Shown here in pieces: positions 26,860 through 29,300 of a stretch of DNA of 39,758 nt (position 1 is its first letter; each line of letters begins with the position of its first letter). The stretch is from Shigella phage SfIV, in the sequence record KC814930; one strand, 5' to 3'. The notes below the pieces were generated by a model that saw only the letters and a program-made list of their open reading frames with translations, was not told the origin of the DNA and made no database searches. The position numbers were made by a program, and so were the translations under genes.

Positions 26860-27222
26860 TTAACGACCTGCTGCGCGGAGTTTTCCGTCAGGTTCACCGG
26901 CAAGAGTCAGTAACTGTCCCTGGTCTTCCTGCAGAATAGTCAGGCGACCACCGCGATTGACATACATCGGCGTTTCGGTGGTGTCTTCTTCGGAAATTTT
27001 CCCGCGGTTAGTCGGGCGAACATATGAGAGTTTGTGTTTGATTTTCACACGGTTCTCATCAAATGGTTCGATTTCCAGGTTGAGTGAGACCTTACCTTTG
27101 GTTTTCGTGTTCATCACACCGGAAGCGACTTCACTGAGAACTGCGCCGATTTTGGTTTCAAATACGCCGCCGTCCAGCTCCCCGATAAATGCCTGCACAT
27201 CAGTACTGCGTTCGCTAGCCAT
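26860..27222 (-). CDS. hypothetical early protein (YfdP-like)
   Basis: ORF 26860..27540; ATG at 27222 has SD gaggag upstream and gives a 120-aa protein; the upstream extension lies in GC-rich, structured, probably non-coding sequence. Confidence 0.5.
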   Translation of the reverse strand: MASERSTDVQAFIGELDGGVFETKIGAVLSEVASGVMNTKTKGKVSLNLEIEPFDENRVKIKHKLSYVRPTNRGKISEEDTTETPMYVNRGGRLTILQEDQGQLLTLAGEPDGKLRAAGR

Positions 27223-27690
27223 TTTGCTGCTCCTCATCATATCGACCCTGCAAGGCCGATTAGTTTCTCCACAAAACAGAGAAGAACACCTGCGGTGGCA
27301 GCCGCCCGGATGGATTGGGTTATGAGCCCGTCGTCCGGTGATGCTCTTCTCTGTTTTGTAAAAAGGACGGTACCAGCCGGAAGCAAGGGTACAAACTGGT
27401 ACCTCCAGGACTACACACAGCATAAAGTTGTGGTGCCGGGTGCCTCCCGGTGCCTGGCGAAGGTTGCACACCAGACGGGTGGGTATCCACAGAAGGTCGA
27501 CTGTCAGCCTCAACCTTAACCCGCGTGCGCTGAGCCGCATTCACCACAACGCTAAGGATTCTCTCTGGTTAAAAATACTTAGCTGTTATGTGCCTGCTTT
27601 TAGCCACATCAGGCGAGGTGGACCTGGTTATTTCCCAACAACAAGGATTCGGTTAATCTGGTTATCCCCAACAACGCAAAAGGAAAAGAA

Positions 27691-28125
27691 ATGTCCGGTA
27701 ATATCTACACGCTGTACAAATCCCACTGTGAAAATGTTGGAAAGTATCGGGGCATTGAAATCAGTGGGGTAGTGTCATCAGTCGAAATAAGCAAAGTGGA
27801 ATCAAGGGCAACATTACTTACTCTTCTGGACCTTGTCTTACATGAGCACCGGAAGAAATTCGGCACTCCCTATAATCAGTTGAATGGGAAAAAGGCTCTG
27901 GTTCACCTTATTCTGATGAAGCATCACTGGATGCCAAAACAGATTAATGAGATGAAATTTGATGAACTTCTTCTTTCAATTCAGGATGAACTCACACTTG
28001 ATAAAATAAGCGTAACCGCCCAGAAATTTTTAGATTATCGAGACTGGAGATCACAAATTCATCACTTTGATGATTTTGACGAAAATGAATGGGATCCTAA
28101 TTTGTCTGCACAATATCTAAAGTAA
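27691..28125 (+). CDS. hypothetical protein (AT-rich moron)
   Basis: 144-aa ORF on the opposite strand to the surrounding early-left operon, AT-rich, SD aaggaaaag upstream, two direct repeats in its upstream region. Confidence 0.55.
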   Translation: MSGNIYTLYKSHCENVGKYRGIEISGVVSSVEISKVESRATLLTLLDLVLHEHRKKFGTPYNQLNGKKALVHLILMKHHWMPKQINEMKFDELLLSIQDELTLDKISVTAQKFLDYRDWRSQIHHFDDFDENEWDPNLSAQYLK

Positions 28126-28303
28126 CATCCTGTGATAAAACCGTGATTTCCTGATCCAGTTTTTTTAAGGAGTCTATTGTTTCCTGTCGATAAGACAGCA
28201 CTTCACGAAGCTGGTTTATAGCTGCCAGCTTCTTTGCCATCCACTCGTAAATTTCCTCATTTGTGTATCCGGGCGCGACGATTTTGGGTTCTGTTTTGTG
28301 CAT
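28097..28303 (-). CDS. small protein at the first position of the leftward operon
   Basis: ATG at 28303 with strong SD gaggagg 6 nt upstream; 68 aa, predicted helical; no arginine-rich motif, so not an obvious N homologue. Confidence 0.5.
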   Translation of the reverse strand: MHKTEPKIVAPGYTNEEIYEWMAKKLAAINQLREVLSYRQETIDSLKKLDQEITVLSQDVTLDIVQTN

Positions 28304-28362
28304 TTCACACCTCCTCAAGTTATCAGTTACTTGTTGATGGGGACCAGATTGTTAAAGAGCTA

Positions 28363-28386
28363 AGCGTCCTGTAGGGCGCTTTTTTG
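28363..28386 (+). terminator. rho-independent terminator (plus strand)
   Basis: agcgtcc-tgta-gggcgct stem followed by TTTTTT. Confidence 0.5.
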
Positions 28387-28453
28387 TTGCTAACGAATCA
28401 CCCTAGACTTTATATGCCCCAGGCGGCTACTTCGTGGGCGTCCTGCCTGTTCG

Positions 28454-28483
28454 TTGTTTCTCTTGGGTACATTATGTATCTCG
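28454..28483. promoter_or_regulatory. putative OL-type operator repeats
   Basis: Two copies of tgggtacatt (28454..28463, 28474..28483) sharing the GGTACA core with the palindromes between cI and cro. Confidence 0.4.
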
Positions 28484-28500
28484 TGGGTACATTGTCAAGT

Positions 28501-28525
28501 ATAAAAAAACCTGCCGAAGCAGGTT
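28501..28525 (-). terminator. rho-independent terminator downstream of cI
   Basis: aacctgc-ttcg-gcaggtt followed on the minus strand by TTTTTAT, 13 nt after the cI stop. Confidence 0.6.
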
Positions 28526-28537
28526 CATAAACATTGA

Positions 28538-29212
28538 TTAGGCTTTGATTTTGTATCTTCTTGGTTTTCCTGAGAAAATCACAGTTCCAATTATAGAGCA
28601 ATTACCGTTGATCTTAATGTAAGGCTCAGGCCAGTTTGGGTTTAACGCTTTGAGATAACGCTGTGTCCCATCTTCTATCAACCTTTTGAAGGTGGTTTCA
28701 CCTGTATCGTGCATCAATGCAATAACGTCGTCACCGTGGCAGGCTGGTACTTCAGGATCGACAAAAATCATGTCTCCCGGGCGGTACTCATCAATCATTG
28801 AATCACCTATCACCCGCAAGATATAAGTCATTTCCCCACAGGGTACAGGGCAGGGATACGTTTCTGCTGTGCTCAAATCAACCTCAGAATATCCAACTTC
28901 TTTCCATGCTCCGGCCTGTACCCATGATATGACAGGGACTAATGTGATTTGTTTATTAGTGATTGAAACATCAGGTTTTTTTGTGATGTTCGTTGTCTGG
29001 TGTTCTTGATCGAGCCATCCAACAGGCAGGTCGAAACATTTTTCGATGTGTCGTGCCATGCTGTCACCGATATTTTTAGTAGCACCATCTCCCATAAACC
29101 TGCTGGTCTGGGTTGGCTCGCGATCAATCATAGTGGCAAAGGAAGAATTCCCGCCAACACCATCTCTCAGTTTTCTGGCGTTAGACCGCCGGATGTCATG
29201 GATTGTTTTCAT
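28538..29212 (-). CDS. cI: CI-type repressor (HTH + S24 LexA-like peptidase domain)
   Basis: 224 aa; N-terminal HTH region and C-terminal S24 signature (VIGDSMIDEYRPGDMIFVD ... TFKRL); divergent from a cro-like gene across palindromic operators. Confidence 0.85.
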   Translation of the reverse strand: MKTIHDIRRSNARKLRDGVGGNSSFATMIDREPTQTSRFMGDGATKNIGDSMARHIEKCFDLPVGWLDQEHQTTNITKKPDVSITNKQITLVPVISWVQAGAWKEVGYSEVDLSTAETYPCPVPCGEMTYILRVIGDSMIDEYRPGDMIFVDPEVPACHGDDVIALMHDTGETTFKRLIEDGTQRYLKALNPNWPEPYIKINGNCSIIGTVIFSGKPRRYKIKA

Positions 29213-29227
29213 AACGAAATTAAAACC

Positions 29228-29300
29228 CTTGTACCGTTAAGGTACAAGTATCTTGAAGGTTCATTTTAATCATGTAATATGTACACCGGAGGTACATATT
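29228..29300. promoter_or_regulatory. OR operator region with two palindromic operators
   Basis: cttgtacc-gttaa-ggtacaag (29228..29248) and aatatgtac-accggag-gtacatatt (29276..29300) in the 90-bp cI/cro intergenic region. Confidence 0.7.

Follow-up and report, generated by a model that had tools for sequence, protein, structure and literature searches.

What is a gene doing that runs against the early operon of a phage, and what are the repeats that precede it? This question is raised by a locus of Shigella phage SfIV (KC814930) within the 39,758-nucleotide (nt) stretch of DNA that was analysed. That whole stretch is referred to as the window, and the phage type it represents is an SfV/e14-like lambdoid prophage. 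The early genes that resemble yfdP, yfdQ (DUF2303), and yfdR, a gene of 68 amino acids (aa), and cI are all located on the minus strand, i.e. they run leftward. A gene of 144 aa runs against them. In the original prediction, this gene was described as an independently regulated accessory gene without a recognisable family, and two direct repeats upstream of it were taken for regulator binding sites. The length, position, AT-rich composition, and orientation of the gene against the leftward operon were all borne out. The best explanation of the locus, which we hold at about even confidence, is that the gene is a lysogen-expressed moron in a plug-in slot, where an rRNA-like boxA and stalk would let transcription from the early promoter PL cross the antisense cargo. 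The protein alone is ordinary, and the architecture of the slot is the surprising part. The coordinates of all features are shown in Table 1.

An exchangeable slot downstream of PL

Both direct repeats upstream of the 144-aa gene are present as predicted, and 0 of 200 shuffles of 27200-28700 gave a direct repeat of comparable quality (18 nt, no more than 2 edits, spaced within 60 nt). What had been missed is a third copy, which is inverted and located on the other side of the gene. The same flanks enclose other cargo in Kati, PhiR29_1, CFSAN002236, and M10. Both repeats precede unrelated plus-strand genes in PhiR29_1, CFSAN002236, and M10, with the inverted copy to the right of the cargo in each, and the inverted copy is located to the right of every cargo type that was examined. 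Since at least four opposite-strand cargo genes that are unrelated to one another are preceded by the repeats at this site, the repeats are a property of the slot. As judged from this comparison, they belong to a conserved slot just downstream of PL and not to the 144-aa gene. SfV and e14 have orf33/ymfJ-type genes at the slot and lack the repeats and the bracket, as the boxA and the paired arms described below are called together.

Loci with this slot were collected by scanning a 20-mer from the left flank over IMG/VR and phage sequences, which gave 125 loci. The right anchor contained the outer arm and boxA; with it, 104 of the 125 left-flank loci were found to have the right arm and boxA, and the cargo in these is 319-795 base pairs (bp) long. 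Four cargo families recur in the slot. The first family is ECs1072 (58 loci), to which the SfIV gene belongs. The second family is a coiled-coil protein of 171 aa (171-175 aa) with a C-terminal CxxC...CxxC zinc ribbon (27 loci). The third family is a 159-aa protein with predicted membrane helices that is followed by an open reading frame (ORF) of 78 aa (10 loci). The fourth family is a 167-aa protein (4 loci). Singleton cargo proteins are also present in the slot. Each of the four recurrent families has its main ORF antisense to PL, and the 99 loci have one orientation.

The other cargo proteins, SfV orf33, and e14 ymfI and ymfJ have no significant family match in Pfam or PADLOC. PADLOC gave only three faint and non-significant matches to the other cargo and e14 products (E 0.002-0.063). 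Guilt by association yields no function, as the other slot proteins are also orphans. The slot of e14 in E. coli K-12 (L127 3998-4585) holds the convergent and overlapping genes ymfI (plus strand, 113 aa) and ymfJ (minus strand, 102 aa).

The cargo of the 171-aa type in PhiR29_1 is annotated as a coding sequence of 242 aa that starts upstream of the repeats and crosses them. The start of that coding sequence is probably wrong.

A moron, in the sense of Juhala and Hendrix, is a unit of promoter, gene, and terminator. The 144-aa gene is supported as accessory, moron-like cargo by the conserved flanks around a replaced or absent centre, by its deviant composition (38.6% GC in the gene and 39.8% in the cassette, against 50.3% in the window and 54.1% in the left flank), by a plus-strand terminator of its own, and by the lack of homology to core early functions. 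The accessory status given in the original prediction is therefore upheld by the swapped slot, the composition, and the terminator. Independent regulation through gene-specific repeats is not upheld, because the repeats are shared by unrelated cargo. Remote homology search found no homology to a core early function and all related copies at this locus keep the repeats, so neither result speaks against the original prediction. The unit shares with known morons a single small gene of deviant composition between conserved phage genes, its absence or replacement in relatives, a terminator of its own, and an orientation against the lytic operon. It differs from them in that the slot carries conserved RNA signals on the PL strand, i.e. 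boxA and a co-varying bracketing helix, and in that the cargo promoter is not a recognisable consensus. By these features, the unit is a moron in the usual sense, and its cargo belongs to an uncharacterised family that does have a name. In Salmonella prophages, accessory genes that run antisense are typical morons (PMC7067206).

The cargo ORF starts with ATG and has AGGA 8-11 nt upstream. No promoter was detected upstream of it by a scan of the plus strand for the sigma-70 consensus. The -10-like hexamer between the repeats has TATAAT as its counterpart in the M10-type slot and upstream of the family member in prophage Sp4 of the Sakai strain, which suggests a weak cargo promoter in the conserved left flank. 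The plus-strand terminator that had been predicted was found, at the level of sequence consensus. Its sequence is kept in all loci of the bracket type, and it would shield OL/PL and cI from the cargo transcript.

Predicted pairing of the arms across the cargo

The inverted third copy is located about 650 nt from repeat 2, across the cargo, and the two are predicted to pair in the PL transcript. In partition-function folds of PL-sense RNAs of 875 nt and 1125 nt, the helix between 28350-28333 and 27655-27675 has a pairing probability (P) of 0.8-0.99. The helix is 19-27 bp long. Its strands are referred to as the right arm and the left arm.

The two arms co-vary. Among 22 distinct arm pairs (alignment A5), the paired fraction of cells is 86.3%, and it drops to 25-52% if the partner is slid. 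Changes on both sides are found in 9 of the 19 helix pairs, and 0 of 500 shuffles reach the observed values. The matched changes include CTGGAT/ATCCAG, CTGGT/ACCAG, CTGAAT/ATTCAG, CTTGAT with its partner, and CTGGATGACT/AGTCATCCAG. The complementarity often runs into cargo-specific sequence and then extends to 25-27 bp with bulges. The helix has P 0.78-0.98 on the PL-sense strand in 12 of 12 cargo types, which is never below the value for the plus strand (0.01-0.93).

Repeat 1 does not take part in this pairing. It has no long-range partner in the PL RNA and shows only weak local pairing (P ~0.55). Its inner part, ATTCCCCAACAAC, is conserved in the 125 loci, partly by selection since the search anchor overlaps it, and its outer part, CTGGTT, is variable among loci. 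Repeat 1 may be a relic arm, the -35 and spacer region of the cargo promoter, or an operator.

As a separate observation, a degenerate third copy of the unit CAAC..AAGGATTC..CTGGTTA was found at 27539-27575 on the plus strand (repeat families D4 and D5), inside the 5' part of a small RNA (sRNA)-like element. Positions 27539-27675 resemble a tandem array of about 2.5 decayed copies of a single unit. These copies may be scars of earlier cassette turnover.

boxA and the likeness to rRNA operons

The right arm is fused to a boxA of the type found in rRNA (rrn) operons. This boxA is the sole exact match in the window and is located about 100 nt downstream of the predicted PL. No second boxA was found on the PR side, where the only match is one with 2 mismatches inside cro. 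The 5' strand of the helix starts inside boxA, and the bases that follow boxA, AAUCUGG(AU), are those of the boxA region in the 16S-23S spacer of the host. When GCTCTTTAAMAATMTGG was scanned over one genome per species, 86 of 120 matches were rrn spacer boxA, and 68 had the 5' end of 23S within 600 nt. The matches are mostly in 16S-23S spacers of Enterobacterales, Aeromonas, and Vibrionaceae. The spacer boxA sequence of E. coli is GCTCTTTAAAAATCTGGATCAAGCTG. The identical bases beyond boxA therefore indicate that the copy in the phage comprises the spacer boxA of the host and the bases next to it.

The likeness extends to the pairing. In the rrn operons of six genera, the segment that follows the spacer boxA pairs about 3.0-3.15 kb downstream, between 23S and 5S. 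These duplexes have energies of -22 to -35 kcal/mol, their partner co-varies between genera, and this pairing forms the base of the helix by which 23S is closed. In the phage, the order is boxA, a 5' strand beginning with AAUCUGG, a loop, and a 3' strand ending with CCAGAUUAA. In both systems, AAUCUGG(AU) follows boxA and makes up the 5' side of a long-range helix, with CAGAUUAA at the end of the 3' side. Both also have the boxA consensus in exact form. In the phage, a hairpin with a C-A mismatch on the PL strand (28381-28362) directly precedes boxA, in the order of rrn and not of lambda, and may correspond to the rrn boxB. In consensus, adjacency, complementarity, and covariation, the bracket thus matches at sequence level an rrn spacer antiterminator joined to a 23S stalk. 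The phage stalk differs from that of rrn in that its loop is 0.3-0.8 kb of antisense protein-coding cargo instead of rRNA and in that it sits in the PL operon. In rrn operons, antitermination involves a complex of NusB/NusE, SuhB, and S4, and RNase III cuts the long-range helices by which 16S and 23S are closed. Nus binding, antitermination, and RNase III cleavage, which belong to the rrn system, are predicted for the phage element.

The element shares with the lambda nutL/N system a boxA in the PL leader of a lambdoid prophage. It differs from that system in that its boxA has the rrn consensus instead of the weakened lambda form, no boxB hairpin follows boxA, no N-like arginine-rich protein is encoded beside PL, where the first gene is the 68-aa orphan, and the whole module is missing from the close relatives SfV and e14. 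A nut site of lambda type was rejected, since a helix strand and not a hairpin follows boxA and there is no N-like protein.

The same boxA and helix were found in an unrelated prophage (L128), which has an ECs1072 homologue of 56% identity and was identified through protein similarity only. Its helix has P ~1.0, with U-G and G-U pairs on the boxA-sense strand, and the duplex has -26.1 kcal/mol on that strand against -20.0 kcal/mol on the other. The analyses of L128 and of rrn are free of anchor-selection bias. A Scandinavium prophage also has hairpin, boxA, arm, antisense cargo, and arm in the same arrangement. In the literature available to us, which is an incomplete library, no description was found of an rrn-type boxA and stalk around antisense cargo in a phage early operon.

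Two other features of L128 were observed. Two boxA cores (GCTCTTTA) are located at 4793-4800 and 4573-4580 on the early-operon strand, about 220 nt apart, and the helix is joined to the one that is farther from the promoter. Inside the loop, a perfect palindrome, AAATTTAGCTGAC...GTCAGCTAAATTT (~4494-4524), acts as the cargo terminator.

Table 1. Features of the slot and its surroundings in the SfIV window.
Feature	Position	Strand	Remarks
Repeat 1, ctggttatttcccaacaac (CTGGTTATTTCCCAACAAC)	27624..27642	+	Constant additional arm-motif copy, in the conserved left flank
Repeat 2, ctggttatccccaacaac	27658..27675	+	Lies in the 3' strand of the helix, 27655..27675 (-)
Third copy, inverted, AAUCUGGUCCCCAUCAACAAG	28330..28350	-	Repeat search, pairs I3 and I11; 5' strand of the helix
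rrn-type boxA, GCUCUUUAACAA	28349..28360	-	PL-sense; exact 12-mer match to the consensus (U)GCUCUUUAACAA
-10-like hexamer, GTTAAT	27652..27657	+	Between the repeats; candidate cargo promoter, missed by the consensus scan
Cargo gene, 144 aa, ECs1072-family phage-associated protein, all-alpha	27691..28125	+	NF033230, phrog_5286
Intrinsic terminator of the plus-strand (cargo) transcript	28362..28386	+	Stem of 8 pairs (28362-28381) and T run
68-aa gene, phrog_1744	28097..28303	-	Strong Shine-Dalgarno sequence GAGGAGG; convergent with the cargo gene, 29-nt overlap
Predicted PL promoter, TTGACA-16-CATAAT	28471..28498	-	Promoter scan; near-consensus, 11/12 consensus matches
Structured PL leader, ~70 nt	28388..28459	-	Directly downstream of PL; context, outside the cassette
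STnc100/PasD-like sRNA element	27358..27580	-	Rfam RF02076, 38.4 bits, E 1.8e-6, full-length model match
cI, LexA-like, Peptidase_S24	28538-29212	-	
YdaS/Cro-like gene	starts at 29279	+	

Proposed mechanism

The features of the slot can be joined into one course of events. In the lysogen, where PL is repressed, the cargo would be transcribed rightward from the weak promoter in the left flank, and the transcript would stop at the plus-strand terminator. Upon induction, transcription from PL would run leftward through the structured leader, then through boxA (28360-28349), and then through the 5' strand of the helix (28350-28330). The polymerase would cross the cargo in antisense, and the 68-aa gene would be translated in this cassette type. 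The 3' strand (27675-27655) would be transcribed next, whereupon both strands would pair and the antisense cargo would be closed into a loop. This closure would mirror that of rrn, where the sequence after the spacer boxA pairs with the spacer between 23S and 5S to close 23S.

The boxA would recruit NusB/NusE and the rrn-type antitermination machinery, by which the untranslated antisense stretch would be protected from Rho. Protection of untranslated transcripts from Rho by boxA and Nus factors has been reported (PMC12360218). The boxA complex would also hold the 5' strand near the polymerase until its partner emerges. A helix of at least 19 bp would be a likely substrate of RNase III, which is suggested by its length (19-27 bp), and cleavage would detach the sRNA and the early genes downstream from the antisense RNA of the cargo. 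The convergent transcription from PL would shut the cargo gene off in lytic growth.

Prophages may have copied the boxA of the host 16S-23S spacer and the base of the 23S stalk as a generic socket. In this socket, antisense cargo would be looped out, protected from Rho, and trimmed by RNase III, and cargo could be swapped without polarity on the essential early operon. We regard this proposal as tentative, a little short of an even chance. As a corollary, the cargo genes (ECs1072 and the three recurrent orphan families) are possibly a pool of lysogeny-phase factors, some perhaps immunity genes, that are off on induction.

If this holds, phages have a way to host backward accessory genes in an essential operon despite the risk of Rho-dependent polarity. 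They would have borrowed the solution that the cell uses for rRNA, namely an antitermination and chaperone complex nucleated by boxA together with a long-range processing helix. The rrn-type boxA would then be used outside rRNA operons, in phages that have no N protein at this position. The signature of boxA with AAUCUGG, about 0.3-0.8 kb, and then CCAGAUU can be searched for, and it would point to a hot spot of lysogeny-phase genes not yet explored. For ECs1072 alone, 407 of the 5426 complete E. coli genomes (7.5%) contain the cassette at a coverage of at least 80%.

Alternative explanations

Several findings weigh against the explanation by boxA and stalk. The bracket is missing altogether in SfV and e14, and in e14 the antisense gene ymfI is present without repeats, boxA, or any bracket. 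Repeat 1 is left unexplained by the bracket model. The left motif (GGTTAAT, ~8 nt, CCCCAACA) is kept in at least 13 loci that have no right arm or boxA and still have a plus-strand gene, which indicates that the left arm has a function of its own, e.g. as promoter, 5' untranslated region (UTR), or operator, and that the bracket is not obligatory. The co-occurrence and conservation of boxA and the outer arm in the collected set are partly due to selection, as the right anchor contained both. The boxA may also be redundant for read-through, since the put-like leader described below may already give antitermination. On the PL strand, the hairpin upstream of boxA has a C-A mismatch in place of a U-G pair; it is weaker there and makes a better terminator on the plus strand. 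Across the arms, 32 G-U pairs fall on the PL strand against 10 on the other (p = 0.0009), where base composition predicts about 68% on the PL strand if substitutions are mainly in the right arm. As the excess is roughly explained by composition, the assignment of the helix to the PL strand rests mostly on the adjacency of boxA and on L128. The start site of PL, the promoter of the cargo gene, the binding of Nus factors, and the cleavage by RNase III are predictions from the sequence.

The persistence of the left motif without the right arm also gives some weight to the operator idea of the original prediction. The direct repeats may be operator or activator sites for the promoter of the plus-strand gene, with the third copy as a further site for the 68-aa gene or for DNA looping, although we consider this rather unlikely. 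Relative to GTTAAT, the repeats would lie at about -40 to -22 and -6 to +12, which is the classic geometry of occlusion. The Sakai Sp4 member, which is located in a different operon, has a related motif upstream (TATAATCTGTGGTTCCCAATC), and in this cassette the 68-aa gene is preceded by the third copy in the same relative orientation. However, no candidate regulator can be identified, and none of the cargo proteins can be the common binder since they are mutually unrelated. Other cargo types have no minus-strand gene by the third copy, the outer half of repeat 1 is not conserved, and no consensus promoter was detected. Changes in both arms and complementarity into cargo-specific sequence are not expected of independent protein sites. 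As regulator sites, the repeats are therefore favoured by their geometry and by the left motif and disfavoured by the covariation of repeat 2 with the distant inverted copy. The covariation can also be placed in the plus-strand cargo mRNA, where pairing between the 5' UTR and the 3' UTR would stabilise the mRNA or control translation. Most pairs are Watson-Crick, the plus-strand RNA has P 0.57-0.93 in 11 of 12 cargo types, and the right arm is located just ahead of the plus-strand terminator. This explanation is nevertheless improbable. The transcript would start inside the left arm if GTTAAT/TATAAT is used, so that the co-varying outer 8 bp would be absent from the mRNA, and boxA is present only on the other strand. 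In addition, P is 0.01 on the plus strand against 0.91 on the PL strand in one cargo type (L067), and the wobble pairs of L128 favour the boxA strand.

The arms could also act at the level of DNA, as ends of a mobile cassette of transposon type or of the miniature inverted-repeat transposable element (MITE) type, or as recombinase or invertase sites by which cargo is exchanged or flipped. The divergence between cargo types begins inside the arms or just inward of them, the arms co-vary as terminal inverted repeats do, and repeat 1, as a direct extra copy, could be a recombination scar. We consider this explanation very improbable, as the pairing extends with bulges and internal loops in the manner of RNA helices and the outer arm is shared with host rrn and fused to boxA. 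A transposon or MITE was rejected because there is no transposase or recombinase in or beside the cassette and no target-site duplication, and all cassettes are located at the same single site among the loci examined. An invertible segment was rejected because the cargo has a single orientation, with reversed cargo in 0 of 99 loci of the four recurrent families; the full-length E. coli cassette matches examined are collinear single-piece alignments.

The 144-aa protein and its family

The gene had been said to have no recognisable family. This is true only for Pfam, PADLOC, and PDB, where sequence and profile searches of the 144-aa protein gave no match. NCBIfam NF033230 (the ECs1072 family) is matched over the full length and above its curated cut-off (157.8 bits against 70, E 1.7e-46, residues 4-144 on model positions 2-142), and phrog_5286 is also matched over the full length (E 1.5e-90). 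Neither entry comes with a function. When 1.84 billion representatives were searched with a profile, 76 members were obtained at 50% clustering, and nearly all of them consist of a single domain and are 145-155 aa long. The family has a few conserved residues (L50, R54, L64, G66, A69, H72, and W134).

The AlphaFold (AF2) model of the protein is confidently all-alpha, with a predicted local distance difference test (pLDDT) score of 82 and a predicted template modelling (pTM) score of 0.82. A fold search with this model gave no significant match. Weak resemblances to HD and HEPN folds were rejected, since their scores are insignificant and their motifs (Rx4-6H or H...HD...D) are not conserved. 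Neither the 144-aa nor the 68-aa product had a PADLOC hit with an E of 1 or below.

The namesake of the family in the O157 Sakai strain, formerly ECs1072 and now ECs_5703, is a protein of 151 aa in prophage Sp4 (L250 19361-19816). It differs from the SfIV member in that it is antisense in the PR operon, between a cII-like gene and replication gene O, without the boxA bracket. The sequence upstream of it given above resembles repeat 2 with a perfect -10, and no boxA is nearby. In a microarray study of the lysogen in glucose minimal medium, ECs1072 of Sakai showed a significant change of expression at growth transitions.

The 68-aa gene

In this cassette type, the 68-aa gene is the first to be translated from the PL transcript, and its convergent overlap with the cargo gene was correctly described in the original prediction. 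Other cargo types have no PL-sense gene at that position. Its homologues are found only in Escherichia and Shigella, and none is annotated. Neither an arginine-rich motif nor a Pfam match was found in the product. The N-terminal 48 aa of the 68-aa protein are 94% identical in the cassette of E. albertii, against only 72% for the cargo protein.

Our working guess, drawn by analogy, is that the 144-aa protein could be a factor that benefits the lysogen, e.g. a superinfection-immunity factor, and that the 68-aa product could be its lytic-phase antagonist. In the noncontiguous Tha/Ith operon of Staphylococcus aureus prophages, a lysogeny gene is accompanied by a small overlapping antisense inhibitor gene (PMC11087260). 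Both systems have a larger and a small gene that are convergent and overlapping, and expression in opposite phases (lysogeny and lytic growth) would be expected here. However, the 144-aa protein has no significant likeness in sequence or fold to Tha, which is a HEPN protein (best Foldseek E ~0.8), the small gene instead of the large one runs operon-sense in the SfIV slot, and the 68-aa partner is missing beside the distant family member of L128.

PL region and neighbouring features

The structured leader that adjoins the cassette is kept across at least 6 immunity types and is also found in ST64B, SEN34, SPN3UB, Pectobacterium ZF40, Yersinia YeP1, and Pantoea AH07. Its consensus fold has 3 co-varying pairs. 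By analogy, this leader may be an RNA antiterminator. It was compared with the putL site of HK022, whose position and size are given in PMC9378689. Both are conserved structured RNAs of about 70 nt that are located right after PL in phages without an N gene. The SfIV leader adjoins the cassette and is not part of it, and no similarity to HK022 put could be demonstrated by sequence comparison.

Repeated operator-like motifs are located at 28455-28493 beside PL (repeat family D2). Motifs based on GGTACA/TGTACC were observed at 28455-28493 and 29228-29248, with two direct 19-mers over PL and the palindrome CTTGTACC-N5-GGTACAAG beside PRM/PR. These motifs are presumably the cI/cro operators of this immunity type. 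A cII gene of CP76 type is also among the landmarks of the window.

The STnc100-like element is located immediately downstream of the bracket in the PL sense and has a terminator-like 3' end of its own. STnc100 is a prophage sRNA family related to PasD (bioRxiv 10.64898/2026.05.13.724894). The match (38.4 bits) is below the gathering score of 47 for RF02076, and Rfam at gathering thresholds gave no match anywhere in the window. The segment is kept in SfV, e14, ST64B, and many Stx phages.

Two kinds of annotation are corrected by these findings, namely cargo ORFs extended across the repeats, as in PhiR29_1, and a yfdP-like ORF extended over the sRNA. The latter is an ORF of 226 aa (26860-27540, minus strand) that is annotated as a coding sequence in phage Kati and that crosses the STnc100-like element and a GC-rich non-coding stretch. 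Only the YfdP part of 120 aa (26860-27222) is annotated in SfV and RefSeq, and the remainder is called a frameshifted pseudogene in RefSeq. The 226-aa ORF is probably over-extended and laid over the sRNA element.

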